Shown: in pieces, positions 3,272-56,266 of the stretch
Layout: each line of letters starts with the position of its first letter
Position numbering within the stretch: the first letter of the stretch is position 1
The notes under the pieces: model-generated
Databases searched by the model: none
What the model saw: only the letters and a program-made list of their open reading frames with translations
What the model was told of the DNA's origin: nothing
Translations under genes and position numbers: made by a program
DNA from: a virus
DNA length: 64,000 bases
IMG/VR virus record: IMGVR_UViG_3300049436_000052
Span: 201,433 to 265,432 of that record
Strand: one strand, 5' to 3'

Positions 3272-3543
3272 TTCTTTACATTAGAATAATAATAACATCC
3301 AAGATTTTAATAAAATAAGATTTTGGATGTTTTTTCTTTTAAATATAACCAATTCTGAAAAAATGAAAAATTATAAAGTTAGTGGATATATAAAACTTGA
3401 TAAAATATTCGAATTAAATTTATCTGCTAAAAATAAACCACAAGCACTAAAATTTACTAAGTGGTTGTATGATCTGAATAAGATAAGATTAAAAATTGGT
3501 TTAACAACAGATCATCCAACAATTATTGCTGAAGATAAATAAA

Positions 3544-3595
3544 TTAACATTTTTTAACATAAAAACTGAAACATCTATTCATTATTTTCGTATAA
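3544..3595 (+). promoter_or_regulatory. ECF-type phage promoter TTAAC-N5-TTAAC-N9-GAAAC-N16-CGTATAA
   Basis: Exact motif upstream of ORF 3629; about 21 copies in the window, co-oriented with the downstream gene. Confidence 0.85.
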
Positions 3596-3628
3596 TATAA
3601 TAAATAAACTTAATTAAAAAGAAAAACA

Positions 3629-3820
3629 ATGAAAAGATTAGTTAGATTATTTATTGTGATATTATGCGTGTATATCGTTTTTAACGCATACCAAGATACT
3701 CAAAAAAACAAAAAGTCTATTTGGTACAACATTGCTTACCAAGGAAAAAAGGTTGTTGATTTTGGCGTTGAAAAAACAAAATCAGTAGTAAATGAATTTA
3801 AATCTGGATTGAAAAATTAG
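3629..3820 (+). CDS. Small membrane-anchored hypothetical protein
   Basis: N-terminal hydrophobic segment; directly after promoter. Confidence 0.6.
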   Translation: MKRLVRLFIVILCVYIVFNAYQDTQKNKKSIWYNIAYQGKKVVDFGVEKTKSVVNEFKSGLKN

Positions 3821-3821
3821 T

Positions 3822-3950
3822 TGTTAACGTTGGTGGTATGGTTAGTTGGGGATTAGAAACCACAAACCTAGACACAAGTACAAACTTAATAAATTGATAT
3901 AATGATGAATAACGCAGAAAAACCCCAATTAACTATACCACATGTTAGCG
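3822..3950 (-). repeat. attC-like recombination site (array 1)
   Basis: TAAC...GTTAGCG cores flanking imperfect inverted repeat GTGGTATGGTTAGTTGGGG / CCCCAATTAACTATACCAC. Confidence 0.75.
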
Positions 3951-4339
3951 TTTCGGTTATGGATTTACGCATTGGGAATTTAGTTAAATTAAACGATAAA
4001 GACTATCACGCACTAGAAGAAGATGGTCAGTTGAACGATAAAAATAACATTTGGGCAGTGAAACGCATTGATGAAGATGGTGATATAAGTATTTACAATA
4101 AGATAGAAAATTTATTTGAATATGTAAATATTGAAGAAGTTGAAGGCATTAATCTAAATGACGAATTGTTGGATAAAATAAAAGTAACAACTAATGAATA
4201 TTTCAGCAAAGGTAATGGTGTTTATTGGTTTACTCGTCATAATCCTCATACTCCAATAGTTTATTTACACCAATTTCAAAATATATTTCACGCTCTAAAA
4301 ACATACGAATTACTAGTCGGTTCTTTAACTGAACGCTAA
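3902..4339 (+). CDS. Cassette-borne hypothetical protein (starts inside attC-like site)
   Basis: ATG lies in the hairpin loop; reads through GTT AGC; stop TAA is within the next CGCTAAC core. Confidence 0.75.
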   Translation: MMNNAEKPQLTIPHVSVSVMDLRIGNLVKLNDKDYHALEEDGQLNDKNNIWAVKRIDEDGDISIYNKIENLFEYVNIEEVEGINLNDELLDKIKVTTNEYFSKGNGVYWFTRHNPHTPIVYLHQFQNIFHALKTYELLVGSLTER

Positions 4340-4464
4340 CGGTTGCGTATAAAAAACGTTGCCATTTTGAAACACGAATGTTTAATTTAAAAATAAACTT
4401 AATATGAAATACAAAGTTCAATTAACCGATGAAGCTGGCAATGTTTTTTTATACGATGTTAGCC
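4334..4464 (-). repeat. attC-like recombination site (array 1)
   Basis: CGCTAAC...GTTAGCC cores; arms CGTATAAAAAACGTTGCCA / TGGCAATGTTTTTTTATACG with one unpaired base. Confidence 0.8.
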
Positions 4465-4667
4465 GTAGTTCTTGTTCTGAAAAAACACTTAATGACTTCA
4501 TTTTAGAAGCGTTACAAATTTCGGAGGATAAACGGGAACTTCCTGTAAAAATACAGTGTCCAAACGGATTAGAAGTAGCACCTTCAATTAAAATGAAATT
4601 TGAAAACTATGGAAGTCCGATACTTGGCGATAAGTTAGAAGCGATGCACATCACTTGGCGTGATTAG
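4404..4667 (+). CDS. Cassette-borne hypothetical protein (starts inside attC-like site)
   Basis: ATG in hairpin loop; body bounded by GTTAGCCGTAGTTCT and AGAATTACGGCTAAC. Confidence 0.75.
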   Translation: MKYKVQLTDEAGNVFLYDVSRSSCSEKTLNDFILEALQISEDKRELPVKIQCPNGLEVAPSIKMKFENYGSPILGDKLEAMHITWRD

Positions 4668-4673
4668 AATTAC

Positions 4674-4767
4674 GGCTAACGAATATATATATTTTTATGG
4701 TTATAAATATCATTAAATTAGATAATTACAACCATAAATTTTAAAGATTTGATTTAAATTTATAAAA
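4674..4767 (-). other. attI-like terminal site of array 1 / recombinase leader
   Basis: GGCTAAC core with no hairpin partner, then TATATAT and a 44-bp block (4724-4767) identical to 10626-10669. Confidence 0.65.
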
Positions 4768-4774
4768 ATACTAT

Positions 4775-5556
4775 ATGAAATTTGATGAACTACTAAAACA
4801 ATATTCCAATAAAATTGAATATTTCAAATATTCAAAAAGAACTAAAGAAATGTATATTCATTATACATCCAAATTTTTGATAAAAGTAAACAAATATCCA
4901 CAACATATAACATCTAAAGATTTTGAGGATTATTTGTTAAAATATAAATTCACTTCGATTTCTCAACAAAATCAAATAATAAATTCAATAAAATTTCTTT
5001 ATGAAAAGGTATTAAATAAAAAATATAATAAAATTGATTTTGAACGTCCAAGAACAGAAAAGCATTTACCACAAATAATTGATAATGGATTTTTGTTAAA
5101 TAAAATTAATCTAATACCAAATTTAAAACATAAAGCAATAATTTCTTTAGCATATTCTGTTGGTTTAAGAGTATCAGAAGTAATTAATCTTAAAATTGTG
5201 GATGTAGATTCAAAAAGAATGATAATCAATATTAATCAAGCAAAGGGTAAGAAAGATAGAATAGTTCCATTATCAGAACATATTTTAGATTTATTGAGAA
5301 AATATTGGAAAGAATATCATCCAAGAGAATATCTTTTTAATGGACAAAATTCATTACAATATTCTGCAACTAGTTGTAATCAAATAGTAAAAAAATATTT
5401 AGGAGATAAATATCATTTTCATTTACAACATTATTAGAATGTGGAACAGATCTAAGAATTATTCAAAAATTGGCTGGACATAATTCTTCTAAAACAACCG
5501 AAATTTATACACATGTGAGTACTAATGTTTTATCAAAAATTAAATTACCCTTATAA
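4775..5556 (+). pseudogene. Tyrosine recombinase (N-terminal SAM-like domain, XerD/IntI-related), frameshifted
   Basis: YSVGLRVSE and KGKKDR motifs; frame breaks at HFHL; alternative frame continues [34 protein letters not shown] to stop 5556; the LRH motif is missing. Confidence 0.9.
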
Positions 5557-5759
5557 TGATAGAAAAACAAAAAAATAAAAAGCAATCCGAAAACGACAAT
5601 ACTACAAATTTAAGTGTTATGTGTTGTTGTGCTAATTGCAAAAACTGGAAGCTTAAAACTAAAAAAACGGGTGTGCTTGGAGTTTGCAAATTAACAAGTT
5701 TTGATGCTTTTTTTAATGATGTTTGTGGTAGTCACATATTGAAAATTATAAAAAAATGA
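5556..5759 (+). CDS. Small Cys-rich hypothetical protein, possible degenerate cassette
   Basis: CANC...C...C; contains in-frame GTT ATG TGT like the cassette genes. Confidence 0.5.
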   Translation: MIEKQKNKKQSENDNTTNLSVMCCCANCKNWKLKTKKTGVLGVCKLTSFDAFFNDVCGSHILKIIKK

Positions 5760-6708
5760 CGAAAATTTAACTTAAAATATTTAAAAAGGAGAATAAAATG
5801 GATTATCACATTTCAAAAGACAGTAAGGGCAATGATTTGCCAAGATATAATAAAGCAGAAGCGTTGAAACTTGACGGTGCGATTGAGACAGATGCAACAT
5901 TAAAAAAGAACCTAGTAGTTGTGCTTAAAAATATTTTTGGGGAGGGTGTTGCAAAAATATTAGATGAAGATGAATTAAACTATCAGGTAAAAAATGAATT
6001 GGGAAGAAAGCAAACTTTCTTAATTTACCCACCTTTAAAAAACGAATAACATGAACGACATTGACAAAAAAATAATTGCATTAAGAAAACTAACAACTAA
6101 CTTTGTATTTATCGAATGGGATGTTCACGAATCTTCTGATTGTTATAAGATTTTTGATGAATATTCTAAAAATAAAGACAAAGTTATTCTTTGTAAAGTT
6201 GAGGATGGAATTGAAATGGCTATTGACAATGCAATAAAAGTAGTCGGAAAATGGCGAGATGAGTTTTTCGGAAAATAATTTTATATAAAATTTGTTTTAT
6301 GTCACCATATGATAAACTACTTTTTTATTTTTCGTTATTAATTGTAATTTTTTTACTATCGTTTCTCTACTATCATAACAAGAACAAACGTTTTAAAAAA
6401 ATAAAGTATCGAAAACTTATAAAAAAAGAAGAATTGAGAAATTTTTATCATCACTTAAATTTGTAATCAACTATGGAAAAATATAAATTTCACCTCAAAC
6501 CTGAAGAACTTGGACAATTGGATCATCATTTTGTAGATGATAATGACAAAAAGATTGCTACTTTGTTACGTGAACCTAATGATAAAGGATATAACGTTAT
6601 TACTTATTTTGAAAGTAATGAAAATAAACCACCGTTCGTACATACTTTAATTGAAGGATTTGTTGCAGTTAGAAAACTCTTAAAGAAAGTTGGAATTAAT
6701 GCTGATTT

Positions 6709-7380
6709 TCAATAATTGTTTAATTCTTGATTTACCACATCTTTTGCTTTATTCTCAGGTTTATAGAGATAATCTTGTTTTTCAGGTTCGTCATATTTCT
6801 CATCATCAAAAAATGGTATTTTAAATTTAACATTTTTAATAATTGAGTAAAAATCTTCTGCGGTTTCTAAATTTTCCCTATTGCTTAATATGGTATATCT
6901 TTCGTTATCCATTGGTTCGTTTGTCATTGTGTTGTACATATTCCATACAAAATAAACTTGATTCGAATCGTCAAATTTAGCTTGCTTTTCACCAAATATA
7001 TATGATTCCTGATTAAATTGTTTTGATAGTTTTGCAATATCATTTAATGTGATGTTTGGAACAACTAGTGAATTTTCAAAATTGCCATATTTCCCTTTGA
7101 TTTTAATAAAACCATAATTCAACGATCTTAAAGTAGATTTTAAATTATCCATTCTTTTGTTATTTTCTTCAGGACTTACTTTCATTGCTTGTGGATTTTC
7201 TGCGGTAAATATTCCAATCGTATTGACAGCATTAACATCGCCACTCATCATTCGTTTTAGTCGTGGATAACCTCCTTCATCAACATCTGCTTCATCAATA
7301 TTTTCATTAAGTTTTGGTTTGAAGGTTTTATCTAATCTGGCCATAACTTCAAACAATCTTTTCTTACTATCATTTATCAT
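6709..7380 (-). CDS. Conserved phage hypothetical protein (GIFTAENP motif), lone antisense gene
   Basis: 223 aa ORF opposing the + block; leader ending LNE...DE. Confidence 0.7.
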   Translation of the reverse strand: MINDSKKRLFEVMARLDKTFKPKLNENIDEADVDEGGYPRLKRMMSGDVNAVNTIGIFTAENPQAMKVSPEENNKRMDNLKSTLRSLNYGFIKIKGKYGNFENSLVVPNITLNDIAKLSKQFNQESYIFGEKQAKFDDSNQVYFVWNMYNTMTNEPMDNERYTILSNRENLETAEDFYSIIKNVKFKIPFFDDEKYDEPEKQDYLYKPENKAKDVVNQELNNY

Positions 7381-7499
7381 ATTGTAAATTTTTATATAAA
7401 TAGTTAAAAAATGTTAAATTAATTTGTTGTATCATATTTTTTTCTAACTTAGCCAAAACATTTTTTAGTTTTTTTCGTATAATATAGAAAATACGTAAT

Positions 7500-7859
7500 A
7501 TGTTAACAGTTAATCAAAATTTGGTAGATGAATTTGTTTTTTATTTAAAAGATGTGAAATTTCGAAATAAAATTCAAAACTTAAAACTTGAATATCAGTA
7601 TCCGATAACTAAATGTGATGGTTGGTTGTATTTAGCATTAATTATCATAAAAAAATCTAAAAGAAATCAGGGTATTGGTTCAGAAATAATTAAAGAAATT
7701 ATTAAATTTGCTGATACATACAATCTTGAAATTAAACTTTGGCCTAGTGATAAACATGGTAGTGATTACAATAGATTGATTAAATTCTATGAAAACTTGG
7801 GATTTTTTTTAATTGATAAATTTGAAAAAGAATATATGTCTTACAAAAAAATAATTTAA
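7500..7859 (+). CDS. GNAT-family acetyltransferase
   Basis: RNQGIGSEII acetyl-CoA motif A and LIKFYENLGF motif B. Confidence 0.85.
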   Translation: MLTVNQNLVDEFVFYLKDVKFRNKIQNLKLEYQYPITKCDGWLYLALIIIKKSKRNQGIGSEIIKEIIKFADTYNLEIKLWPSDKHGSDYNRLIKFYENLGFFLIDKFEKEYMSYKKII

Positions 7860-8442
7860 AGATTATGGAAATTATTCAAAAAATAAAACAATTAAATTCT
7901 GGAAAAGACAAACTGGAATTTATCTTAAATTCAATATATAGTGGTCATAAAAACTTAAGTGTTATTATGAACCTACATAAACATCTAAATCCTCTTAAAA
8001 ACGAAGAAATTGATGATTTTATGGAAGGATTGATAAATGATCTGCTTGGTTATTATGTTTTTGTTGAAAAAAACAAATTAGATGAGAATGAGTTTGTAAA
8101 AACAGCATTACAAGATCTTTTTGTTTATATGAAAAAAAATAAAGATTTAAAATTCAAATCAAAAAGATTTTCTAATTACTTGAAAATAATTTAATAACTA
8201 AATTAAAAAATATGAAGAATAAAATTATTTTTATAAAACGGTTTTTGTATATATATTGGAAATTTTTATTAATAGCAATCGTTTGTTTTATTTTGTTTTC
8301 AGTGTCATGTGGTTGTATAGAAGGTATAATTGCAACAATATTTATAATGGGATATTTATATGGGTTATATCGAATAAATTCATTATTTTAATAAAAAAAT
8401 AATTAAAATAATGATTGAATTATTAATAAAATTAGAGAATAA

Positions 8443-8901
8443 ATGAAAATTCCTGAAGACGATATATTTAAAGATTCAAATGAATGTCATAAAATTTGGC
8501 ATAAATTCTCGAATTGGTTGGTTAAAACTTTTGGAAAAGATCTTCATGGTGAATGGGAAATCGTTGAAATTACAAATGATGATGGTAAAATAGTAAAATT
8601 TAAAAGTAGAAGCTTTAACGAACTTGAACTTAGCCGAAGATTGGTTGGTTATGATGTAATGTGCAAAATTGAAAGATATGTAAAAAGATGTTGCCCTGAG
8701 ATTAAAATAATTGGTTGTGATGATTCTTATTATAGTAGTTCATTTATTTTATTAATTCCACATCCTAGGCATGGAATTACAATTATGTTCATTCCTCAAT
8801 GCACAACAATTCAAAATCAATTGTTTTTATATGATGGGCATTTCGATCTTTTGATGGAAGAATTGAAAAAAATGAAATATGTTTATAAAAATCAGATATA
8901 A
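8443..8901 (+). CDS. Hypothetical protein
   Basis: 152 aa ORF in co-oriented block. Confidence 0.65.
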   Translation: MKIPEDDIFKDSNECHKIWHKFSNWLVKTFGKDLHGEWEIVEITNDDGKIVKFKSRSFNELELSRRLVGYDVMCKIERYVKRCCPEIKIIGCDDSYYSSSFILLIPHPRHGITIMFIPQCTTIQNQLFLYDGHFDLLMEELKKMKYVYKNQI

Positions 8902-8910
8902 AATAAAAAT

Positions 8911-9243
8911 ATGAAAGAAATTCCAAAAATAGGACAAAGATACAACTGTTTTGACGATGGCAAAATAAGTTATAACAGATTATATACTGTTGATGTGAAA
9001 GAAGTAGTTCCTTTTGATAAAATAGATAAAACTACACTAAAGAAATGGAAGGAAGAAGTTGAAGAATGTTATTGGTTATATGCAAAAGAAACTGATTTTT
9101 TTATCAAGACAGAAAATGGTGAAGATGGTGATGCTGTTTTTGTAAGAACAATTAATGGTGGGTGGTTTAGTATAGGTAATTTTATGAATAGTGGTAGATT
9201 AGATGTGGATGGCGAATTAACTGAGATGCTTAATGTTACATAA
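8911..9243 (+). CDS. Conserved phage hypothetical protein
   Basis: 110 aa ORF with FDDGKI...SGRLDVDG. Confidence 0.7.
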   Translation: MKEIPKIGQRYNCFDDGKISYNRLYTVDVKEVVPFDKIDKTTLKKWKEEVEECYWLYAKETDFFIKTENGEDGDAVFVRTINGGWFSIGNFMNSGRLDVDGELTEMLNVT

Positions 9244-9498
9244 TAGTTATGTACATGACATTTAATATTTAAAACTTAATGGAAAAATTTAAAAGAGTAG
9301 CATTAGAAAGAAAATTACGAGCAGATTCTGATGGAATGCCAGTTTTTAGAGATTGTTTTGAACATGAAACTTTATTATCATTTTTTGATGATGGTGGTAA
9401 TTACGCATTTAATGAATGGTGGGAAAAAGAAGGTTCGAAACAGTTTAATGAGTGGGTTTTGAAAAATGATGAATATAAAATGTATGGTTCTTAATTGG

Positions 9499-9590
9499 CT
9501 ATAACGTTGGTAATATGAAAAGTTGGCTTTGTAGTCACTTCCAATTTACCACAAACGCTGATAGCTAATTTTTTATATTGCGTGTTGTGT
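9499..9590 (-). repeat. attC-like recombination site (array 2)
   Basis: CTATAAC...GTTGTGT cores; arms TAATATGAAAAGTTGGCT / AGCTAATTTTTTATATTG. Confidence 0.75.
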
Positions 9591-9624
9591 GTAGTACGGA
9601 TTATTAACGATAAATATTAGTAAA

Positions 9625-9807
9625 ATGAGAAATTATAGAATAGTAGAAGGTAAAATTGAGGTGGATGATTGGTTTGTTGCTTTTGGTGTTATTGGTAAAT
9701 GCACAGAAGTTGATAAAACATATGACCAAAATGAACCTAATTATAATAGTAAAGAAACAAAATGGACGTGTGGTAAACACTGTAAAAAAATTGAATTTAT
9801 AGACTAA
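9625..9807 (+). CDS. Cassette-borne hypothetical protein
   Basis: Bounded by GTTGTGTGTAGTAC and complementary GTATTACACACAAC. Confidence 0.7.
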   Translation: MRNYRIVEGKIEVDDWFVAFGVIGKCTEVDKTYDQNEPNYNSKETKWTCGKHCKKIEFID

Positions 9808-9818
9808 CGTAGTATTAC

Positions 9819-9948
9819 ACACAACGGTGAAGCTATGACCAGTAAAGGATTACAGAGCGATGCGCTATCAACCGATACCCAACTGGATGCGAGCTGAAAT
9901 GTTACAAGCAAGCACTGAAACCTTTATTGGTTATAGCTTATGTTAGCG
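9819..9948 (-). repeat. attC-like recombination site (array 2)
   Basis: ACACAAC...GTTAGCG cores; arms AGCTATGACCAGTAAAGG / CCTTTATTGGTTATAGCT. Confidence 0.8.
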
Positions 9949-9993
9949 TTTCGTACTTTTTAAATCGAATTATAAACTTTTAAATATTAAAAA

Positions 9994-10272
9994 ATGGAAA
10001 ATCAAAATTACTTAACCCTTAAATGGGGAACACTTAAAAGCTGGTATTTTACAAACTCAGAAAAGGGAAAAGAACTTTTAAAAGAATACCGTGAAATCGG
10101 TTCATCTTTTAGTGCTATGGCTCAAAATGATACTCCACGACAAAAGGAAATTATTTGCGAACTTATCGACTTATGTGATGGTGATACAATTTATCTCGAT
10201 TGGGATGGTGAAGATGTGTCAAAAGAGAAAGCAAAAGAATATGTGATGAACTATGGTAAAGAGCGTTCTTAG
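9994..10272 (+). CDS. Cassette-borne conserved phage hypothetical protein (LKWGTLK motif)
   Basis: Bounded by GTTAGCGTTTCGTACT and AGTATGAACGCTAAC. Confidence 0.75.
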   Translation: MENQNYLTLKWGTLKSWYFTNSEKGKELLKEYREIGSSFSAMAQNDTPRQKEIICELIDLCDGDTIYLDWDGEDVSKEKAKEYVMNYGKERS

Positions 10273-10278
10273 TATGAA

Positions 10279-10408
10279 CGCTAACGTTAAAATGTAAGGT
10301 GTCGTGGCTACCTAATAAAAGCTACATATTTGTAAATTTAGATAAATATTAATATGAAAAACGAAACTTCAAAAACCAAGCAGCCATGCACTTTACATAG
10401 TGTTATAG
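10279..10408 (-). repeat. attC-like recombination site (array 2)
   Basis: CGCTAAC...GTTATAG cores; arms ATGTAAGGTGTCGTGGCT / AGCCATGCACTTTACAT. Confidence 0.8.
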
Positions 10409-10581
10409 CCAGTTATTCAATAGAGCAAAAAGAAGACAAAGCTCTTAGCTGGTGGGGTGTTTTAACAAACAGACAAAAATCAAAATATGCTAAAAAGTAC
10501 TATAATAAGTTAAGTATTGAAATAAAAACCAGCGAAAAAATAGTTATATGGGAAAATAACGCTTGGGGTAATTGGCTATAA
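10354..10581 (+). CDS. Cassette-borne hypothetical protein (starts inside attC-like site)
   Basis: ATG in loop; GTTATAGCCAGTTA pairs with terminal TAATTGGCTATAAC, which holds the stop codon. Confidence 0.75.
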   Translation: MKNETSKTKQPCTLHSVIASYSIEQKEDKALSWWGVLTNRQKSKYAKKYYNKLSIEIKTSEKIVIWENNAWGNWL

Positions 10582-10669
10582 CTATTATATATATTTTTAT
10601 GACAGTAAGTTACTTATTTAAAATAAATTACAACCATAAATTTTAAAGATTTGATTTAAATTTATAAAA
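10576..10669 (-). other. attI-like terminal site of array 2 (no adjacent recombinase)
   Basis: CTATAAC core then TATATATATTTTTATG and a 44-bp block identical to 4724-4767. Confidence 0.65.
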
Positions 10670-11783
10670 TCATTATTTTTTAATCTTTTTTTCTTATTTT
10701 TGTAAAAAATATTTTTAATTTATGGAAATAAGAAAAAAAGCAAATGCCTACAATATAGAATATAAACAACTTTTAAATTCAATAGAACGGTTAAAAGAAG
10801 AAGTTTTTGAACGTTTAAAATTTCTATCAAAGAAATATCCAGAAACAATTCTAATAGATAATATTACTTCAGAAATTATTTTATCAACAACCGATAGAAA
10901 CAGCATTTCGTTAGAAACTCAAATAAATCTAATAAAGATATTTGAAACAATGATTGAAAATATTAATAATAAATATGTTCAAAAGCAAATTAATTTTGAG
11001 ATAAATGATAATAATTAAAATTATTTTGTTGTTGTTTACTATAAGTGAAATTATAGTTCACAATACTCCACTTTACTATAAAAGTAAAAACGAAAAAATA
11101 GTAAGATGTAATTACGAATTTGTTCAGATTAGTTTAACAAAAAACGTCATAGTAGTGTTTAATATCGTTGAAAACATAATTTGTTTATTTGATTATCAAC
11201 GCAACATAAATGGCATATCAGTCTGCATTTGCAACATAACAATTAAAATAAATAACGAATAAAAATGGGAAAGAAAAATAATAAATGTGAAGTGTGTGGT
11301 AAAAAGATAAAGTGGAAAGAAAAACTTTGCCAAGATTGTGAAAAAGATAATAAAATTTCTTTATATTTACTTTATAGATATCTTACAGATGTTGAAAAAG
11401 TTCCATCAGATTATGATTATTAGAGGTTTATTACAAAAAAATATTATTAAGTTATTTTGCATTGAAAAAGCATATCTACGTCCAAATTTTATTATTGGTT
11501 TAATTAGTTTAGATTTAGAAAATTTTCTTTATGATGAAATGTCAATAGAAACTTATTTAGATAATATTATTACAGTAGATAATATCTTTATAAAAATTAT
11601 TAAACAATAAGATGAGAAATATTTTAAATGAAAAACTGTGCGATGTATTTGAAATAAGACATCAAAATTATAGATACCCTCAATTTATCACAATTCCACC
11701 ACATAAAATAGAATTGGTGTTTTTCTTTTTCCAAATGATGAATGATTTTCGTGAAGTTCCTTTTTTGATTGAAATTTAACAAG

Positions 11784-36995: not shown

Positions 36996-37012
36996 GAGAT
37001 ATTATTTAGGAG

Positions 37013-37078
37013 TTTAAATCAAATCTTTAAATTTTATAGTCATACTGACTAAGTATTGAGGATATATAACCGTTAAGC
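37013..37078 (+). other. attI-like terminal site of array 3, directly upstream of the ECF sigma gene
   Basis: TTTAAATCAAATCTTTAA (reverse complement of the motif at 4741 and 10643), ATATATA, then GTTAAGC core. Confidence 0.6.
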
Positions 37079-41493: not shown

Positions 41494-41611
41494 TTGTTAT
41501 TTAATTTAGAATCATTCTAAATGAAACCATTAAATAATGTTAATTTATTTATATTTTTTTGTTTTATCGATAATCATCTCTATTTTTGTAAATCTTATAA
41601 ATATAATAAAC

Positions 41612-44075
41612 ATGTTTAAAATTGAGAAATTAAATAATATTGATCAAACGTTTGACAAACAGTTATTACCAAATGGTTTTATTAGAAATAAATTTGTTGA
41701 TTTATTTTATATAACATTGATGACTGAGTTTAGCCGTTTATTTAATTATGGGGTAATTATTCCCACCACAACAATATTTACAAATACCTTAAAAGATAAT
41801 TAATAATCTAAATTAAGATGTTTAAGATTGAAAAATTAAATGACATTGATCAAATACTTGATGATTTGTTATTATCAAATGGTTTATTTAGATATAATTT
41901 TGTTGATATGGTTTCTGTAGAATTGATGGATGAAGTTGATTTTTTATTTAATCATGAGATAGGTATTTCTACCAAAATAATACTGAAAATATATTAGATG
42001 TTGAATAATAATTTAAAACAGATGTTTAAAATCGAGAAATTAAATAATATTGATCAAATACTTATTAATCATTTGCTACCATATAGTGTAATTAGAGATG
42101 AATTTTATATAATGTTAATGGGTGAGCTTAATTTTTTAGTTCTGAATGAGATAGATATTTATTCTATATGTATATATAAAAATACATTAAAAGATGAATG
42201 AAAGAATAAATCTATTAATTAGTAGAAAGTTATATGAACGATTTGAACTACAAGTATATGTTCTAAGAACTTACTTTGATAATGATATTGATCTTAGTTT
42301 AGATGATATTTTAACAGATATTTTATATTCCAAATTAAAAGATGATTTTGAAAATTTTGGACAAATATTAAATTTAGAAAATGATCAAAAATATAGATTT
42401 ATTATTTGAAAAAAATATATCTGAACAATTCAAAATGAATCCATATTTGTGGCTATATTCTGATAATGATATTGATTTTAAGTTAAAAAGTACTATATTT
42501 AGTTCTCTATTTTCTGAGATAAATATAATTGATAATCAATTTAATCAAATATTAAGTAAAATATTATCTTTATGAATCCGAAAAATAACTTTAACTTTAT
42601 TAATTTCCATATAACATTATTATTGTTTAAAAATTCGTTTGACGTTCAAATAATAGGTTTTGGTGAAATTATTAAGATAGATGTTTGCAATCCAGACGAA
42701 TATTCGCTTGATATTCATTTGTGCGAAACTATGGGAAACTTTTTTATATGAAAAAAATGGTTGGTAAGTTGTCTTTTAAATATTCTTTAACTTTAGAACT
42801 TCAAAAAATGCTGGAAATTGGTTTACATCATTTTGATGTTGGTTTTATTCGTCGTACAATTAATATAGGTATTACTGATGATGATATTGGTGTTGAAATC
42901 AGAAAAAATCCTAATACATTAAATGAACTTTCTGAATTATATATTTTAATTAATGATGTTTAATGGATAGAATTCTTGATATAAATTTGATAAATTTATT
43001 TAAAATCAAAGGATGTTATTCTCGACCAGATTTTATTAATGTGGATTTATTTCAATTAGAATATGAAGTTTGTTTGAGTCATTATATTTAAGATTTCAAT
43101 TAAATATATAATATAGTTTAACTATGGAAAAAGAAACATTGTTTTATGAATTCCTTGATGAAAAAATTATTATGTTGTTTAACATTAAAGGACTATATTC
43201 TGAACCCGATTTCATACCACCATTATATTCTGGTTTAGTGTCGAATGTTTGCCTAAATGAAGTTTACAAATCTTGTCTTGAACTTTATGAGGTTTGTTAT
43301 TAAATCTTAATTTACTGAAAATGAATAAAATAGAACTTAAGACATTAGATAATGTTTTAAAAATAATTGACAATCTATTATTTGATTATTTTAATAATGA
43401 TATTAGTGGAGAAATTAAGAATTCGTTTAATGAAAACATTTCAGAAATTTTATTAGGATTGGATAGTCTTTTTAAAGAAGTGGGTATTGATGAGATCACA
43501 TATATTTTTGAATGAACTTATCTTCAGATAACATGAAAACAATTTATTTATCATTGCAAAATGAGCATAGTAACTTTATAAATGAAATGAATGATGTTGA
43601 AAGGATATTTCAATTTATGATTGGTTATAACTTTATTAAATTATTTTTCGAATTAAAAGGAAATCTTAGTTTAGATCTTGAAGAATTAAATGATATTAAT
43701 TTTTAAATTAAAATATTATATATGGTAAATGTTTTTAGTAACAATGTTTTAAAGGCTATTGAAGAGGATTTAAATTCAAAATGTATCAGATTCCACATTT
43801 CTTCTAAAGCTTATGAAAGAGGTTATGTTGATGTAAATTTTGAGTTATTAATGATATTAAACGATGATTTTGAAAATATTTTAATGGGTGAGATTGTAAA
43901 TTAAGGAAATGTGAAAAATAAAATTTTTGAAGAAAACTTTCAACTATATTTTAATAGATTATATCAACTTGATGAACTAATTCCATTAGAATTAAGAATA
44001 CTTTTAAATGTATTGGAATTTAATAACCAATATCGGAGAGAATTTGATGATATAGTTTTTTTGTTATCTGATTGA
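41612..44075 (+). other. Tandem cluster of about 13 micro-ORFs (50-70 aa)
   Basis: Back-to-back ORFs, many with ATGA/TAATG overlaps, after a TATTTTTG promoter at 41581; first three start MFKIEKLN.IDQ. Confidence 0.7.
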
Positions 44076-44121: not shown

Positions 44122-44173
44122 TTAACTTTTTTTAACATAAACATTAAAACAAATTTTAATAATTGTCGTATAA
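44122..44173 (+). promoter_or_regulatory. ECF-type phage promoter (AAAAC variant)
   Basis: TTAAC-N5-TTAAC-N9-AAAAC-N16-CGTATAA. Confidence 0.7.
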
Positions 44174-44735
44174 ATAAATAAACTTAGAAATTTTAGGTTT
44201 AAATGCCTATAAAAAAATACAAGAATGGAAGATAAATTTTTTTATGTTTTTAAATCTGATCTTGGTACAAAAGAAAGTAAAATAAGAAATTTAAATAAAG
44301 AACTTTCATCTGCTTTATATTATAAATTAAGTGATTTAATACTTGGTACTATTTTTCAAAGTGTTGAAATTGCATTAACATTTGAAGAAGATGTTGTAAA
44401 TGATTTAGAATTGTGTACTTTTTAACTATAATAAATAAAATAACAATGAAAAACTGGAAGGAAGAGGCTCAAAAAATTTTGGATAAACATTTAACAACAA
44501 TGTTAAATAAATACCCAGAATCTTACAAAACATTAGAAGAAATGACAAAATTGCCTGAATATGAAATTATAATTAATGTAATGTTTGAATTTGCCAGATT
44601 GTACGCAAAAGAAGCTTTTGAAGCAGCTAGAAAATTGGTATTAAATAAAGGCAGTTTTGAAAGAAAAGACACTAATGAATGTTATATAAATATGTTTGAA
44701 ACATTTAACGATTTTTTAACTAATAATAAAATATC

Positions 44736-49500: not shown

Positions 49501-50248
49501 TTTAAATTTAAATTCCTTTATTGATTTAAATTTATTTAAACATTTAGATATTTAGATTTTAATTTTGGAAATTTAAGCAATTTTAAAATATTCTCTAATG
49601 AACTTTCTGAACTATATATTGATACAAAAATTTAGTAATTAATTCTATTTATGAAACGTTTCTTAATCGAAAATGTTTATTTAAATCAAATAGATTCTGA
49701 TTTTTATATGGATTTTGAAATGAAATTTTTATTATCTCTTTGGTCAAAAGTTCATGATGAAATAAAATTAGATATATCTAATCAACAATATGAACTTTAT
49801 CTTGAAATTGAAAAAACATACGAAAATGATTAATAACAAAACATCTTTCGAACCTAGAAAACTTGGTAATAATGAAACTGTTAATGAAATCATCCCTATA
49901 CTTAATATGTTGCTTAATCCAAATCTATATCTTGAGTTAACTGGTAATATATATGTTGAGGTTAATATAGAATTAAAAAATTGTATTGATCTTTCATTAC
50001 ATTTATCTCATTAAATTATGATGAATAGAAATAGATTGTATGTTAAGTTATATAATGGATTAAATCTTAATTTTGATGATGAAATTAATCCTAAACTTGA
50101 TAATTTATTTAACACAAATTTATATGTTGAACTAAAACGACTGTTAACTATTAATTTATATGTTGAAGTTAATAGAGAATTAAAAGACTGTATTGATCTT
50201 TCGTTACTTTTTTATGTTTATATACGAACTTTCTTCAAGGATTTATAA
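46581..50248 (+). other. Second micro-ORF cluster (about 16 ORFs, interrupted by 47109-47960)
   Basis: Contiguous 50-75 aa N/L/E/D-rich ORFs, many below the 60-aa track cutoff. Confidence 0.65.
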
Positions 50249-50275
50249 AATTTATTATTACAATTTTTTTTGTTA

Positions 50276-50328
50276 TTAACATTTATTAACTAAATGCCTG
50301 AAACAAAACAATGATATTTTTCGTAGAA
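50276..50328 (+). promoter_or_regulatory. ECF-type phage promoter
   Basis: Motif with CGTAGAA -10. Confidence 0.75.
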
Positions 50329-50874
50329 CTAATATTATAAACAACAAAAATATCTCATGGAAATTATATTTGTCAATAAAAATCCTAATTTTACAATTGT
50401 ATGTGGATTAGATGAAATTATAAACGGTATTGAAATAACTACATTTGATCTTGCAAATAATCACAAAATTCTTAATCTGTTACATTTCATCTCTATGTAT
50501 GCCGAAAATGATGGTTCTGATAAACAGAAAAAATATGCATTTGATTTCTTTTGTTATTATATTTCTGCGTTTGATAGTGATAATAGTAAAAAGAAATTTG
50601 ATATTTTAAGTAAAAACCCAAAACTTCAAATATTATGTTCTGGGGAATTGCTAGGTAATTTGAAATCAAATTTTTAAACTTAATCACATGAAAAAAAATA
50701 CATTATACTATAAAAAAGAAACTGCCCGAAAAATGATGAATTTTCATGGCAAATTGCTTGCTTGGTCATTAGTTATTGCGGTTTTTATAGTAATTATTGC
50801 AACATTAAGTTAAGAATAAAAAGCGTCTATTGAAAATCCTTTAGAATATTATTTTTTAAAGGATTTTTTTTTCA

Positions 50875-50927
50875 TTAACATTATTTAACTAAATTATTGA
50901 AACATTTTATCCGATTTAAACGTATAA
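50875..50927 (+). promoter_or_regulatory. ECF-type phage promoter preceded by terminator hairpin
   Basis: Full motif; AAAATCCTTTA...TAAAGGATTTT upstream. Confidence 0.85.
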
Positions 50928-52020
50928 GAACTATATAAACAATTAAAATAAATAAGTATCATGAAAACATATCCACAATTCCCTGAAGATTGGAAAGATG
51001 CAAAACAAACTCTTTATAGAAATTTTTATTTGAAAAGTAGTGTTGATATTGAAATTCTAAAAGATTTGGTTAAAACTCATATTTCTGATAAGGGCAATAA
51101 TGGTGTTTTACGGGCAAGATTGTTAGGCATTCTCAATTCTTATTTTAGTAGAGCTAATGAACTTTTTTGGACAAAACACTATCATCCATATACATATAAA
51201 CTTATTTTATTTTGGAAACATACTGGAGAATGGTTTGCAAGAACTTTCAATACTTGTAAATTTCGTAATAATGTAGAATTATGTAATATTGCCTCCTCTG
51301 TGGTGGATGAAATCCTTGCTGAAGAAAAAAGTAAATAATAAAATAATAAATATCATGAACCCAAATAAACAAAAATGTCCATTTAAAGATTATGAAATAA
51401 TCAACTCTGAATCTTTTAAATTAAGATATCATTGTGTGGGATATTATGGTTATAGAAAACCAGATGAAATTGCTGAATATCCACACGAAACACATGTTTT
51501 TCAAAGTCATTTTGTAATAAAAATATTCAATTATTGTTTAAACTAATTAAATAAATAAACATCATGGAAACATCAAACAATTGGAAATTTAATATAAAGA
51601 TTAAACATCTTTTTACAAGCAAAACAACGCCTGAAGTAATAATAATCATATGCACTTCTTTAATTCAACAATTAAAATCATTGATTGAAAGTATTGAAAA
51701 ATCAAACATTGTTGAAGACGATAAATATTATTTAACTTCAAATCTTGAAGAGATTAAAGATGGTTTTCAATTTCTTCAAGAACTTGCAGATGGTTCAATT
51801 CCAGAAAATGAATGGGATGATTATTGTTTTGAGGGTGATTTCGAAAGTGAATTTAATGGTAATTTAACAACACTTTATGATCTTGCTGATTGTAAAATAG
51901 AATCAAAATCTGGTGATGATACTATTCAGGAAAAATTTCTTTGGATTGATTAATTAAAATAATTAAAATACATCTATTAAAAAAATCTCTTATAACTTAA
52001 TTTGTAAGGGATTTTTTTCA

Positions 52021-52073
52021 TTAACATTCTTTAACTAAATTATTGAAACAAATTATCTGGTTTGTTCGTATAA
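52021..52073 (+). promoter_or_regulatory. ECF-type phage promoter
   Basis: Full motif, N17. Confidence 0.85.
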
Positions 52074-52103
52074 GAAGTAATATAAACAATTAAAAAATAA
52101 GTT

Positions 52104-52304
52104 ATGGAAACATTTTATTATTCGATAAAAACGGCAAATAAATCTTGGAATGAAACCAAGCAACATGAAATTGAGTTTGATTCGTGGGAAAATTTTGGAA
52201 AGTTCTGTAATGGACTGTCAAAACATTTAAAAAAAGAAATTAGGGGATGCGAAACTTCTGGCTATAATAATCAGGGATCGTATTTTTATAAATTTTGGAC
52301 ATAG
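52104..52304 (+). pseudogene. Hypothetical gene interrupted near its 3' end by the TnpB element
   Basis: Matches paralog 38585..38944 up to GSYFY; continuation NVVTLPKKKINVL resumes at 53627. Confidence 0.75.
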
Positions 52305-53626
52305 TAGTAAAGTTTTTTTGTGAATGTTTCTCAATCAAAATGTAGCTGATTTACAAAAAAACTTGCAAATTGTAAAAGATAGTGTATCTTTACAAAAAAT
52401 TAGACTATTTACCAATAGATGAAAGTAATTCACAAATCATACAAGTTTAATATTGCTCCTGATAATGAGCAAAAAGAGCTCCTTGCAAAACATTTCGGAG
52501 CTTGCAGGTTTGTGTTTAATCGTTACTTGAATAATAGGAAAGAAAATTATTTAAATGATAAAACTTCCTTAAATTATTATGACAATGCTAACGATTTAAC
52601 TAATTTAAAAAAACAAAATGAATTTAATTGGTTAAAGGAAATTAATAGTCAATCATTACAATCTTCTTTAAGAAATTTAGATACTGCATACAATAAGTTT
52701 TTTAGAAAGCAAAGTAAATTTCCAAGATTTAAATCAAAGTATGATAGACAAAGTTTTACTATACCACAATCATTAAATGTTGAAGTAGATATGTTGTTTA
52801 TACCAAAATTTAAAGAAGGTATTAAAATAAATTTACATAGAGAAATTAAAGGTAAAATCTTGTTTGGTACAATATCCAAATCTACAACAGGTAAATATTA
52901 TGTAAGTATAACTTGCGAAATAGAATACACTCCTATTGAAAAAACAAATTCAAAAGTTGGTATTGATACTGGAATTAAGGATTTGGCAATATTATCTAAT
53001 GGTAAAACATATAAAAATATTAAAACACTTAAAACCAATTTAAAGAAAATAAAATATAACCAAAGACAATTATCTAAAAAAGCAAAAGGAAGCAATTCCA
53101 GATTAAGACAAAAATCAAAACTTGCAAAAGTACATGAAAAAGTAACCAATATTAGGAAAGACTATTTGCACAAAGTCACTACAGAAATAATCAAAAACCA
53201 CGATGTGATTTGTATTGAAGATTTAGCCGTAAAAAATATGATGAAAAATCATAAATTATCACAAGCATTTTCTGATGTTGCTTTAGGTACTTTTTATACA
53301 ATGTTAGAATATAAAGCTAATTGGAATGATAAGACAGTTGTTAAGATTGACAGATATTTTCCAAGTAGCAAAACCTGTAATGTTTGTAATTACATTAACC
53401 AGGATTTAACATTAGATATTAGGGAATGGACTTGTCCAGATTGTAATACAGTACATGATAGGGATTACAATGCAAGTTTAAATATATTAAAACAAGGATT
53501 AAATATATTATCTGGTTCAGGAATTGAGTCGGATATAAAACAAAAACGTAGTGAGGCGTTGCCATTAGGTGAGTCTATGACCTACGAAACCCAACCTATT
53601 GCTATTAGCGTAGGTGAGTAGTTCAC
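52290..53626 (+). mobile_element. Non-autonomous IS200/IS605-family (IS1341-type, tnpB-only) element
   Basis: Inserted after TTTAT, ends TTCAC, no target duplication, left-end hairpin AAGTTTTTTTGTGAAT/ATTTACAAAAAAACTT. Confidence 0.85.
52419..53621 (+). CDS. tnpB: RNA-guided endonuclease TnpB
   Basis: HTH N-terminus (FGACRFVFN), RuvC GIDTG, IEDL and DRDYNAS, zinc finger CNVC/CPDC. Confidence 0.95.
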   Translation: MKVIHKSYKFNIAPDNEQKELLAKHFGACRFVFNRYLNNRKENYLNDKTSLNYYDNANDLTNLKKQNEFNWLKEINSQSLQSSLRNLDTAYNKFFRKQSKFPRFKSKYDRQSFTIPQSLNVEVDMLFIPKFKEGIKINLHREIKGKILFGTISKSTTGKYYVSITCEIEYTPIEKTNSKVGIDTGIKDLAILSNGKTYKNIKTLKTNLKKIKYNQRQLSKKAKGSNSRLRQKSKLAKVHEKVTNIRKDYLHKVTTEIIKNHDVICIEDLAVKNMMKNHKLSQAFSDVALGTFYTMLEYKANWNDKTVVKIDRYFPSSKTCNVCNYINQDLTLDIREWTCPDCNTVHDRDYNASLNILKQGLNILSGSGIESDIKQKRSEALPLGESMTYETQPIAISVGE

Positions 53627-53654
53627 AATGTGGTTACTTTGCCAAAGAAAAAAA

Positions 53655-53707
53655 TTAACGTTCTTTAACTATAATAACGAAACATTTTTAATTAATTTTA
53701 CGTATAA
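53655..53707 (+). promoter_or_regulatory. ECF-type phage promoter
   Basis: Full motif, N17. Confidence 0.85.
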
Positions 53708-53714
53708 GTATATA

Positions 53715-53907
53715 CCCACTGCCTAAAAAGTAGATAAGCGAAACTTATTAAAGATATTTTAGGATGGTATAAAGAAAGTCCAATTCTTTCCTGTGGGTCG
53801 AATGCCGTTCGAATCGGCTCGTTGATTGAGGTTAGGTAAGTGACAAGGTTTAATTCCTTGCAAATTAGTTGATACTACAAACAATCTGGCAGCTTGGAAA
53901 GACAAGC
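53715..53907 (+). ncRNA. Putative structured RNA / 5' leader
   Basis: CCCAC/GTGGG multibranch domain, two T-arm-like hairpins, GCTTG-GAAAGA-CAAGC hairpin; starts right after promoter. Confidence 0.6.
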
Positions 53908-54516
53908 AAATTTTTTAAAATAAATTTAATTAACATTATAATGGAATTATTCACAGAAATTGAATTTAAAGTGTCAGAATTTGATAAAATTGATAAGGTT
54001 TTATATTTTTTGACCAATGAAGGTTGGGAAATTATAAATACCAGAGAATTTTCAATTATAAGACCAAACAAACCAAAAGAAATAACAGCAAAAAAATATA
54101 AATTTAGACGCACAATCTAATAATTTTTAGTTACAAAATCATTTTTAAAAAATGCATTATGGAAAATATAAACGTGAATAAAGAAGCTATTCTTAAGCGT
54201 ATTCAAAGACATGAAGAAAATATTAAAACATATATGTTAAAATTAAAAGAAAGTGAAACCGTTCTTGATAGTGAATATTACATTAAATATATTAGGGAAT
54301 TAGAATTAAGAAAAAATGAATTAGGTTTAGTTTTATCAACTTGTTTTGAATAAATTTAATTACCTAAAAACTGACCAAAAAGCTTGTTTTTATGCCGCTA
54401 ATCCTAAGAACGATATTTATTTATGGATTGCACCGAGAAATGTCTTAGATGTCGTTAAAATTGATAATTCAGATGTTCTTTCATAATTGATTGTTTATTG
54501 TTTATAATTGTTTTAA

Positions 54517-54548
54517 AATCCCTGAGATTAAATTTAGTTTCAGGGATT
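54517..54548 (+). terminator. Terminator hairpin, identical 32-bp copy at 57604-57635
   Basis: AATCCCTGAGATTAAATTTAGTTTCAGGGATT twice. Confidence 0.8.
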
Positions 54549-54642
54549 TTTTTTGTTCCACATAAAACATTATGTTAATATTTATTAAAAATTGTTTACT
54601 TTAACATTTATTTTTTAATTTTGCAAAAATAACATAGCTTAT

Positions 54643-55658
54643 ATGTTCGAAAATAGTTTTGATAGTGTGATTAATGATAATCTTAATTGTTCAGATATAG
54701 GTTTTCCGTTTGATTGTAATACTTTTCCATATAATAAACTTTTAAATTTATTATATGATGATATGGATGTAGAATTGAGTCAGCTAAATTTTAATATACT
54801 TATTCATTGTAGTTCTTTTTCTGATTAATTAATAAGATAATATGACAAATTTTGACAATAAACTACACCAATCAATAACATTTCCATATTTTGATTATAA
54901 TATCTTGCTTAATGATCAACTTATTCATTTCTTGTCTAACAATCTTTATATTGAGTTAAATGATTTAAATAATAACATATCTACTATTTTAATATGAAAT
55001 TACCTAATCCAGAATTTAATGAAGATCTTTTTAATAAATTATTTAGGATTTTCAACAATAAATTATTTGAAAATATACGAAATGAATATTTTCAAATCGT
55101 TGAAAGCAAATCAAATATTGAAATACAAACTGAAGTTAGATTTTCATTAGTGAAAGAATTTAAAATTGATCTACTAAACGAAATTTCTAAACTATTGTAA
55201 TTAATTGGTATATTCTTATGAAAATAGATTTTTATAACACAACTCAAGATGATTTTTATAACATAATTCAAGATAATTTGGATGATAATTTTCGTTTAAG
55301 ATTATTGTATGATATTACTGCATTATATTGTCCAAGCATTGGAGGTAACAAATTATCAAAGCCATTACACCGTGAACTTATAAATACATTTGATTTTATT
55401 AGACTTGAAATATCATTTAATAGGTTATTTGATGTTAGTTTTTAATAATAAAATAATATATAAATGAAATCTATTGAAATAATACTTTATGATAAATTAA
55501 ATGGTTTTGATAAAAATTTATGTAATGATCTTATTAATGGTTATGTTTTATCAATTAAAGGTGAATTAAGTAGTGAATTACACAATGAATTTTATTTTGA
55601 AACTAAACAACTTCTATTTTTTGAAACATTATCCCTTTTGAACTTACCAGGAAAATAA
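54643..55658 (+). other. Third micro-ORF cluster (5 ORFs)
   Basis: After TAATTTTG promoter at 54616; same size and composition as other clusters. Confidence 0.65.
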
Positions 55659-55667
55659 TAAATCCTT

Positions 55668-55720
55668 TTAACATTATTTAACTATGTTAAGGAAACATTT
55701 TAAAACGTTTAATCGTATAA
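55668..55720 (+). promoter_or_regulatory. ECF-type phage promoter
   Basis: Full motif. Confidence 0.85.
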
Positions 55721-56213
55721 GAACTATATAAACAATCTAAAACAATAACATTATGAAAGCAAAATCAAAAAAAATTAAATTTTGGAATCTTCCGAAAGAA
55801 ATAAAATTAATTAAATTTCTATTTGATGGTGAAAAAGATAATAAATATTTAGATATTGTGGAATCTTTTTCATGGTCAGCAAAAAAAGAAAAAAAGTATT
55901 ATAAAATCACCAATCAAATTGATGAACTTGAAGTTTTAGGTAATGGCTGGAGAATTTATTGTTGGTATGACATTAGTGGATATGATTATTGGGTAAAACA
56001 ACAAGAAGAACCTAATTACATTGAGGTTACAATAAGTTTCGATAAAAAGTCAATTTTAAAAAGCGAAATCGGAAATATTGAAAATGCCTTAAACGATATT
56101 CTTAATAAATGCAGAGAAATTGAAAATAAATATTTTAGGTAAAAATAATGTTAAGATAGGTAATTCTTTAAATAATGTCCCTTGTATAATAACCATATAA
56201 GGGATTTTTTTAT

Positions 56214-56266
56214 TTAACATTTTTTAACTATTTGTTCGAAACAAAACAATGAGTTTTTACATATAA
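56214..56266 (+). promoter_or_regulatory. ECF-type phage promoter (CATATAA variant)
   Basis: Motif with one -10 mismatch. Confidence 0.7.

Follow-up and report, generated by a model that had tools for sequence, protein, structure and literature searches.

A decayed two-cassette locus in a large viral genome, apparently part of an undescribed phage-borne integron-like system

Integrons are viewed as a bacterial, and recently also archaeal, invention and are defined by the integrase IntI with its extra domain. In these platforms, a tyrosine recombinase gene and a docking site (attI) precede an array of single-gene cassettes, and each cassette carries an imperfect palindrome (attC) with ...AAC and GTT... 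cores at which crossover takes place. The locus described here, herein referred to as array 1, has the same general plan. It is located at positions 3,822 to 5,556 of a 64,000-nucleotide (nt) stretch of the IMG/VR virus record IMGVR_UViG_3300049436_000052; this whole stretch, bases 201433–265432 of the source contig, is called the window. The contig is 334,326 bp long, complete by CheckV, and has a G+C content of 25%. Array 1 apparently represents a decayed two-cassette member of a phage-borne integron-like system that is undescribed so far; no description of this combination of recombinase, hairpins, and docking site was found in full-text searches of the literature.

Two other groups of described systems are close to this one. 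Clusters of attC sites lacking integron integrases (CALINs) were detected with IntegronFinder in virulent phages, including Polaribacter phage P12002L, and the bacterial IntI1 recombined five of the six phage sites tried (Qi et al., 2023; PMC9892861). The latter result supports the view that such sites are workable as folded substrates. They were treated as stray parts of bacterial integrons, and no phage enzyme was named (Qi et al., 2023). Like the sites analyzed here, they are hairpins with GTTRRRY-type cores between small genes in phages of marine Flavobacteriia and others; unlike them, the sites analyzed here are tied to a phage Xer-like recombinase and a conserved docking site.

The second group includes the Xer enzymes. 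The chromosome-dimer resolvases XerA (archaeal) and XerC, XerD, and XerH (bacterial) are, like the phage enzyme, simple two-domain tyrosine recombinases of ~270 amino acids with a full catalytic set, XerA being the best match. The phage enzyme differs from them in being phage-borne, in scoring under every curated cut-off, and in being accompanied by hairpin cassette arrays instead of a single dif site. The pdif sites, duplexes of 28 bp, are substrates of the host XerC and XerD. In Acinetobacter plasmids, gene modules lie between alternately oriented pdif sites and are subject to Xer-type exchange (PMC7399989), which resembles the arrangement in array 1. In contrast to pdif sites, the sites analyzed here are structured palindromes of 85–135 nt whose stems covary, and they have their own recombinase gene next to them.

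Structure of array 1

Judging from comparisons with related loci, array 1 is, with a probability of roughly 80%, a two-cassette, integron-like gene-capture array that is driven by its recombinase and has its crossovers at the cores. The following features were found, all on the + strand.

3629–3820, + strand: small gene with its own phage promoter-like motif, preceding array 1
AAC at 3828–3830, + strand: core in the sequence GTTGTTAAC, left edge of array 1
3828–3946, + strand: attC-like hairpin site 1, from AAC (3828–3830) to GTT (3944–3946)
3831–4340, + strand: putative cassette 1, comprising hairpin 1, the flank R' (3944–3958), gene 1, and the end R'' (4327–4340)
3902 or 3959 to 4339, + strand: gene 1, an open reading frame (ORF) matching phrog_10066, for which no function is given
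4334–4340, + strand: core CGCTAAC between gene 1 and hairpin 2
4338–4460, + strand: attC-like hairpin site 2, from AAC (4338–4340) to GTT (4458–4460)
4341–4680, + strand: cassette 2, comprising hairpin 2, R' (4458–4472), gene 2, and R'' (4666–4680)
4404–4667, + strand: gene 2, the ORF of cassette 2 (87 amino acids)
4674–4680, + strand: core GGCTAAC with the last AAC at 4678–4680, junction of the array with the docking (attI-like) site
4681–4774, + strand: right half of the docking site and recombinase upstream region, GAATATATATATTTTTATGG...AAATTTTAAAGATTTGATTTAAATTTATAAAA (94 nt, AT-rich)
4775–5556, + strand: tyrosine recombinase pseudogene in two frames, 4775–5437 (N-terminal 220 codons) and 5431–5556 (C-terminal 41 codons)

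The original prediction, made from the sequence alone, had proposed two AAC...GTT hairpins, complementary gene ends, and a final core followed by a recombinase; all of these were found within a few bases of the positions that it gave. The order that it had read on the minus strand, namely recombinase, docking site, cassette, and hairpin, is also correct. Hairpin 1 consists of AAC, a short spacer, a 20-bp imperfect stem with a loop of ~65 nt, a 2-nt spacer, and GTT. Its arms (3833–3854 and 3920–3941) are 86% complementary, and an ATG at 3902 is located inside the loop. Hairpin 2 consists of AAC, the spacer GGTTG, a stem, a loop with the start of gene 2 (4404), the spacer AT, and GTT. Additionally, each gene body has complementary ends. 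In cassette 1, 3944–3958 (GTTAGCGTTTCGGTT) is complementary to 4327–4340 (AACTGAACGCTAAC) with one bulged T and one G.T pair, the latter at position 8 as in the whole family. In cassette 2, 4458–4472 (GTTAGCCGTAGTTCT) is complementary to 4666–4680 (AGAATTACGGCTAAC) with one G.T pair.

All cassette ORFs are directed toward the recombinase, as had been predicted, and the hairpin is located 5' of each ORF. In classical integrons, by contrast, the genes are transcribed away from intI by a promoter within the platform, and attC is at the 3' end of the gene. No function for the cassette genes of array 1 was found in Pfam or PHROGs. Rfam 15 gave no match within 3500–11000, and a DNA search with 3300–5800 gave no match in 50,697 deposited phage genomes.

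Within this one genome, the signal is moderate. Folded as single-stranded DNA (ssDNA), hairpin 1 has −12.8 kcal/mol on the + strand (z = −2.0) and −9.3 kcal/mol on the − strand, and hairpin 2 has −20.0 kcal/mol on the + strand (z = −3.45, or about −3.5) and −17.8 kcal/mol on the − strand. Thus, the + strand folds better at both hairpins, and the single-sequence folding signal is modest. A GC-weighted ungapped scan for GTT...AAC end pairs found 23 pairs in the genome vs. 2–9 across 20 shuffles; it was used instead of an earlier anchored-complement scan, which was too permissive (954 vs. ~760 in shuffles). The gene 2 pair is the top-scoring gene-flanking pair, and only pairs of the palindrome GTTCCACGTGGAAC are ranked above it. 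The hairpin detector is at background level genome-wide at its threshold of 34 (28 vs. 16–22 in shuffles) and informative only from ~39 up; the array hairpins score 36–50, with the background confined to 34–37.

The covariance model of the site family, the construction of which had been suggested together with the prediction, assigned 82 and 80 bits to hairpins 1 and 2 on the + strand and 6.9 bits on the − strand, both hairpins being members of its seed alignment. Sites outside the seed were also found: 9501–9588 (27 bits), genome 184906–185032 (47 bits), and genome 80370–80496 (59 bits). The E-values range from 1e-9 to 1e-15. The model was run with filters off; with the default filters, not even the sites of its seed alignment were recovered from the full window, and negatives obtained in this way mean little in AT-rich DNA. 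Chance is ruled out mainly by the comparative evidence.

Cassettes and docking sites in related loci

Cassette 2 provides evidence for a mobile unit. Relatives of the gene 2 product (87 residues) are encoded by 25 viral contigs (4–640 kb), with identities of up to 98%. In the closest large relative, the conserved neighbour genes reach just 56–69% identity; that is, an 87-codon cassette is nearly unchanged among phages with far more diverged core genes. At the DNA level, copies of cassette 2 with 72–90% identity were found in at least 19 other viral contigs (12–640 kb). In these contigs, homology starts at 4334–4350 and ends at 4674–4689, i.e., at the two AAC cores. Each aligned copy follows a different ...TAAC, the sequence diverges directly past GAATTACGGCTAAC, and in at least 14 contexts the hairpin and the gene stay together, with homology ending at the AAC core on either side. 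Because the flanks of the copies are unrelated, 4341–4680 is a discrete cassette bounded by two AAC cores. The comparison of related genomes, by which the original prediction had asked to be judged, came out in its favour: whole units differ, with breakpoints exactly on the AAC cores.

The ends of cassette 2 also change together. In the diverged copies L090–L092, R' and R'' covary (GTTAGCCGTAG/TTACGGCTAAC vs. GTTGTGCGCAG/TTGCGCACAAC), and the G.T pair at the eighth position of the end pairing is kept in all 17 copies examined, including diverged ones. Both observations support selection on the pairing of cassette ends.

In total, 54 viral loci were found by a search with the recombinase fragment, most of them with an intact gene of ~270 codons. 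In these loci, 107 AAC/GTT hairpins are located upstream of the recombinase (185 kb) vs. 6 downstream (265 kb), i.e., hairpins are ~25 times denser upstream. Strand-neutral detection yielded 131 sites. Constancy of AAC and GTT is no test, as both were demanded by the detector. The flanks were not demanded and are nevertheless conserved: T before AAC in 93% of sites, G after AAC in 92%, and A after GTT in 91%. The resulting consensus is AT-n5-M-TAAC-G-K-T at AAC and T-GTTA-K-n5-G at GTT. The R'' arms vary widely, their only conserved part being AT-n5-M-TAAC. Several cores fit RYYYAAC/GTTRRRY exactly, e.g., GCCTAAC/GTTAGGC in loci L028 and L061, and in related loci the gene before the docking junction is flanked by complementary GTTRRRY.../...RYYYAAC ends. 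The spacer after AAC is 5 nt long in 88 of the 131 sites and the spacer before GTT is 1–2 nt long in 108, so that the longer spacer is on the predicted crossover side in most sites.

Pairing in the hairpins is conserved as well. The RNAalifold consensus of 66 sites contains 13 pairs, of which 12 show compensatory changes; in 64 of the 66 sites, one G.T pair is retained. Among the 131 sites, mismatches that can be read as G.T are far more frequent on the + strand than on the − strand (221 vs. 68). With the covariance model, 54 further sites were found in loci fetched via cassette homology instead of the recombinase, and all 54 are on the cassette coding strand. Like attC sites, the family sites thus conserve structure over sequence; their spacer lengths and mismatches are unlike those of classical attC. 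Of 102 consecutive units, 92 show better pairing of the post-hairpin flank with their own cassette end than with the flank preceding that hairpin (Wilcoxon p = 5e-14). Such own-end pairing would be expected of cassettes that pass through a circle and re-enter by crossover at AAC.

Nearly all related loci with upstream sequence have ...YTAAC followed by TAYTATATGTA (TAAC|TAYTATATGTA), mostly 52–57 nt before the recombinase start; the regular expression used for this site missed about a third of the loci, and the consensus is indicative only. This docking site and the hairpin arrays are the conserved sequences adjoining the recombinase gene. The docking site is attI-like in its position, and cassettes appear to be inserted there.

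Among cultured phages, closely related genomes differ at such a junction. Among deposited sequences, the enzyme is closest to the "integrases" of Cellulophaga phage Ingeline and of the Polaribacter phages Freya and Leef (~38% identity). The original prediction had assigned the window to a Bacteroidota phage; the only basis for this assignment is that the enzyme family has cultured relatives in phages of Polaribacter and Cellulophaga. The genomes of the ten Freya isolates (Freya_1 to Freya_10, MT732463–MT732472; loci L065–L072) range from 43,978 to 48,920 bp. Six of them were compared (Freya_1, 5, 6, 8, 9, and 10) and are 99.8–100% identical on either side of the junction ...AAC|ACCCCTATAAC, 50 nt before the recombinase start. 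At this junction, Freya_1 has no insert, Freya_5 has ~1.7 kb, and Freya_9 has ~4.6 kb. The insert of Freya_10 (~4.9 kb) equals that of Freya_9 plus one unit, and the insert of Freya_6 is the Freya_5 block plus 441 bp absent from the other isolates compared. Every insert junction is AAC, and the series is nested from the recombinase-proximal end, which fits insertion at the docking site. The differences in genome size among the isolates (44.0–48.9 kb) appear to be explained by 0 to ~4.9 kb of cassettes at this one AAC junction. Some Freya cassettes contain several genes between hairpins.

In the description of the Freya phages, the recombinase gene was interpreted solely as an indication that the lifestyle may be temperate (PMC8776804). 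An "integrase" annotation in such phages need not indicate such a lifestyle. The Freya phages, growing on Polaribacter, are a cultured and tractable model for the system.

The recombinase

The recombinase of the window has a 19-nt deletion between 5421 and 5422, by which the box II xLRHS codons are lost and the frame is shifted. No second copy of the recombinase was found in the genome. The enzyme gene of the window is dead, and the array 1 copy is probably inactive unless an enzyme is supplied in trans. Programmed frameshifting was considered for the split gene and ruled out, since the codons for the catalytic Arg and His lie within the 19 nt that were lost. In the 29 intact homologues, the catalytic residues R, K, HxLRH, H, and Y are invariant.

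The best model match of the enzyme is NF040815 (XerA_Arch in NCBIfam), with 197 bits at a cut-off of 220. The integron integrase model TIGR02249 (NCBIfam) matches with 155 bits in two pieces (cut-off 265), and NF011946 with 107 bits (cut-off 435). The scores for XerC, XerD, and XerS are 149, 153, and 84 bits (cut-offs 335, 330, and 267, respectively). Thus, the enzyme is under the curated cut-off of each of these Xer models. A scan of bacterial and archaeal genomes with one recombinase sequence as the query gave two distant, uninformative matches only.

The best match to a known structure is XerA (PDB 5HXY), both by sequence (E = 2e-35) and by Foldseek with the predicted fold (E = 1e-16; predicted local distance difference test score, pLDDT, 87). 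Vibrio IntI4 (2A3V) is ranked next by Foldseek and needs ~50 gap columns, whereas the alignment to XerA structures is continuous. The interval aligned to IntI4 has 44 residues in an intact homologue vs. 92 in IntI4. Thus, the enzyme resembles Xer/XerA and has no IntI-specific insertion around patch III, in agreement with the prediction of a non-IntI recombinase. In IntI, this additional domain is considered defining and necessary (bioRxiv 10.1101/2022.02.06.479319).

The resemblance to integrons, above all to sedentary chromosomal ones, is nevertheless extensive. In both, cassette ends match their own site and not that of the neighbour, the recombinase-proximal end of the array is variable, and site structure is conserved over sequence. 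The phage system differs from integrons in its enzyme without the IntI insertion, which is under the IntI model cut-off, and in its cassette genes, which face the recombinase and have the hairpin 5' of the gene, often with the start codon in it. It also differs in the favoured folded strand, which is the coding strand, in the R stem of 13–16 bp with a conserved G.T at position 8, and in the unequal spacers. Finally, it is located in phage genomes, with several arrays per genome. Because of the missing enzyme insertion and the cassette orientation, array 1 is not an integron sensu stricto. With at least two sites and no functional integrase, it corresponds to a CALIN by analogy only, as the sites are not classical attC.

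Proposed mechanism, alternatives, and other sites of the genome

The proposed cassette unit would comprise a hairpin, the R' flank, one gene, and the R'' end, with its limits at the invariant AAC cores on the coding (+) strand. In an excised circle, R'' would meet its own hairpin, forming a long imperfect palindrome R''-AAC-spacer-stem...stem-spacer-GTT-R'; such a joining would explain why gene ends pair over 13–16 nt. The short Xer/XerA-like recombinase encoded just downstream would exchange strands at or within AAC, its partners being a cassette site and the docking site TAAC|TAYTATAT..., ~50–95 nt before the enzyme start codon. Given the location of the docking site, new cassettes would enter at the recombinase-proximal end.

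Within such a cassette system, a folded single-strand mechanism is the somewhat favoured option on the present comparisons. The site would be read as the folded + strand, probably during replication or recombination, in contrast to the folded bottom strand of integron attC. A single-strand exchange at AA|C with the docking site would then be resolved by replication, as in integrons. In the genome analyzed, all five places (array 1 and four further arrays or single sites) would be frozen in the absence of enzyme from the host or a co-infecting phage.

Slightly better than even, in our estimate, are the chances of a broader proposal, namely that these loci form a separate lineage of integron-like platforms. 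In this lineage, an insertion-less Xer/XerA-type recombinase would act on folded coding-strand hairpins, and the system would serve Bacteroidota phages, from 40-kb siphoviruses to phages of >300 kb, as a main route for exchanging small genes; the IntI additional domain would not be required for cassette recombination at hairpin sites. If true, such a lineage bears on how integrons arose from Xer enzymes. How the integron reaction may have begun, and whether it really needs the extra domain, are questions on which a plain Xer-like cassette platform sheds light. The system also gives the small-gene mosaicism of phage genomes a concrete mechanism. Decay of the array 1 copy lowers its experimental value, but not its evidential value.

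Several points weigh against the cassette mechanism. All of the evidence is comparative, and recombination, circular junctions, and enzyme–site binding would be reconstructed from it. The Freya evidence comes from a cousin system, with a recombinase only ~38% identical. Hairpin 1 folds only modestly better than shuffles (z = −2.0). Without the insertion that contacts extrahelical bases of attC, recognition of hairpins would need another solution. The + strand is also the mRNA strand, and the G.T bias and kept wobbles could reflect selection on RNA structure. A further point concerns hairpin 1 itself. It is ~90% identical in five contigs (L100–L104, near 3001), bounded at AAC and GTTA, and both flanks and the downstream gene differ around it; one AAC crossover per cassette fails to explain hairpins common to unrelated gene bodies. 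The alternatives are exchange at the GTT side too, homologous recombination within conserved hairpins, or joining of hairpins to new genes by another process. The uniform repeats of Vibrio super-integrons pose the same puzzle of hairpin attachment to new genes. In these five contigs, the hairpin 1 loop (window 3902–3958) encodes a leader, MMNNAEKPQLTIP(H/R)VS, which continues in frame into unrelated proteins.

The behavior of hairpin 1 would also fit a duplex exchange of modules of the pdif-like Xer type, with hairpins and gene bodies both acting as modules and the palindromes being a by-product of site history. We consider this alternative unlikely, although it survives better than the others. 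Hairpin 1 does act as a separate module from AAC to GTTA with different partners on either side, the junctions alternate in orientation, each hairpin or gene segment is flanked by inverted repeats, and the enzyme is Xer-like without the IntI insertion. However, a duplex reaction has no need for an inner stem, and yet 12 of the 13 stem pairs covary, the G.T pair is fixed, and the spacers are asymmetric (5 vs. 1–2 nt). The strand-specific mismatch bias (221 to 68) and the highly variable R'' arms with only AT-n5-M-TAAC conserved also argue against it, as does cassette 2, whose hairpin and gene were found together in at least 14 contexts. Moreover, a single recombinase gene is present, which scores 149–155 bits against XerC/XerD models with cut-offs of ~330.

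Gene shuffling based on repeats also has a precedent in the promoter/stem-loop (PeSL) cassettes of T4-type phages. By analogy, the hairpins could be mainly RNA or regulatory elements (processing, terminators, translation control) that are shuffled by homologous or illegitimate recombination, with the recombinase being an unrelated lysogeny or dimer-resolution enzyme. This explanation is very improbable, since the sequences that meet at the breakpoints are unrelated apart from a 3-nt core, which is too short for homologous recombination. Covarying gene ends that lie 200–500 nt apart and pair with each other instead of with the neighbouring hairpin flank serve no evident purpose in RNA. The hairpins, with a ~25-fold higher density on the upstream side of this single recombinase family, run up to a conserved site a fixed distance from the recombinase start, and no Rfam family was matched. 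In favour of an RNA role, the start codon of the downstream ORF lies inside 49 of 136 family hairpins, and 77 more hairpins are within 120 nt of such a start; because of this position, the hairpin structures must exist in transcripts and could affect expression, and the recombination site may also provide translation start signals. As the favoured strand is the mRNA strand, selection at the RNA level is inseparable from DNA folding by sequence analysis.

Chance inverted repeats beside an ordinary decayed prophage-type integrase can practically be dismissed: weak inverted repeats are common at 25% G+C and low-threshold detectors perform equally in shuffles, but the array hairpins reach 36–50 against a background of 34–37, the covariance model finds non-seed sites at low E-values (1e-9 to 1e-15), near-identical copies exist in other genomes, and own-end pairing, cassette 2 breakpoints, and stem covariation all contradict it.

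A genome census with the covariance model, filters off, found nine sites in five places.

genome 80370–81038, − strand: array of 2 sites (59 and 29 bits), outside the window
genome 184906–185032, + strand: single site (47 bits), with an array region to 185437, outside the window
window 3828–4680, + strand: array 1, 2 sites
window 9501–10406, + strand: array 2, 3 sites, with three cassettes ending at 10584
window 37464–37374, − strand: single-cassette site, 1 site (27 bits)

The ~95 nt past the last core of array 1 recur at 10585–10676 after array 2, at genome 185356–185437, and partly at window 37000–37040 (− strand). Thus, the genome has four copies of the docking region vs. one dead enzyme gene; array 2 and the other arrays have no recombinase gene at all. 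A hairpin at 4694–4738, after the last core of array 1, was considered as a third site and ruled out, being not conserved in the copy after array 2.

Array 2 (9494–10676) has hairpins at 9504–9586, 9823–9944, and 10283–10404 and genes at 9625–9807, 9994–10272, and 10354–10581. It ends in the same docking region as array 1 and is not followed by a recombinase gene. The array is bracketed by two exact copies of the 13-nt sequence AATTGGCTATAAC in direct orientation (9494–9506 and 10572–10584). The cassette gene at 185 kb of the genome shares its hairpin and N-terminus with the array 2 gene 10354–10581. The minus-strand cassette consists of the hairpin 37464–37374, an ORF at 37354–37076, and the end ...GCGCTTAAC at 37073. 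Past this cassette, a partial docking-region motif is followed by a gene for an extracytoplasmic function (ECF)-type sigma factor (36995–36342, phrog_1740).

Three further repeats were found in the window. The motif TTAACnTTnTTTAACTA-n7-GAAACA-n~20-CGTATAAG...TATAAACAA occurs at least 10 times in intergenic positions before small genes, at 50246–63856 and also at 3544–3604, 7431–7491, and 44122–44182; it looks like a phage-specific promoter class. Three tandem units of ~205 nt (41600–42105), 76–78% identical and each opening with ATGTTTAAAATTGAGAAATTAAAT, look like a small tandem paralogous gene family. The 14-nt palindrome GTTCCACGTGGAAC is located at window 62051 and 63756 and at genome 266552, with a spacing of 1.4–1.7 kb, and is embedded in a longer conserved stretch (62037–62087 and 63742–63792).

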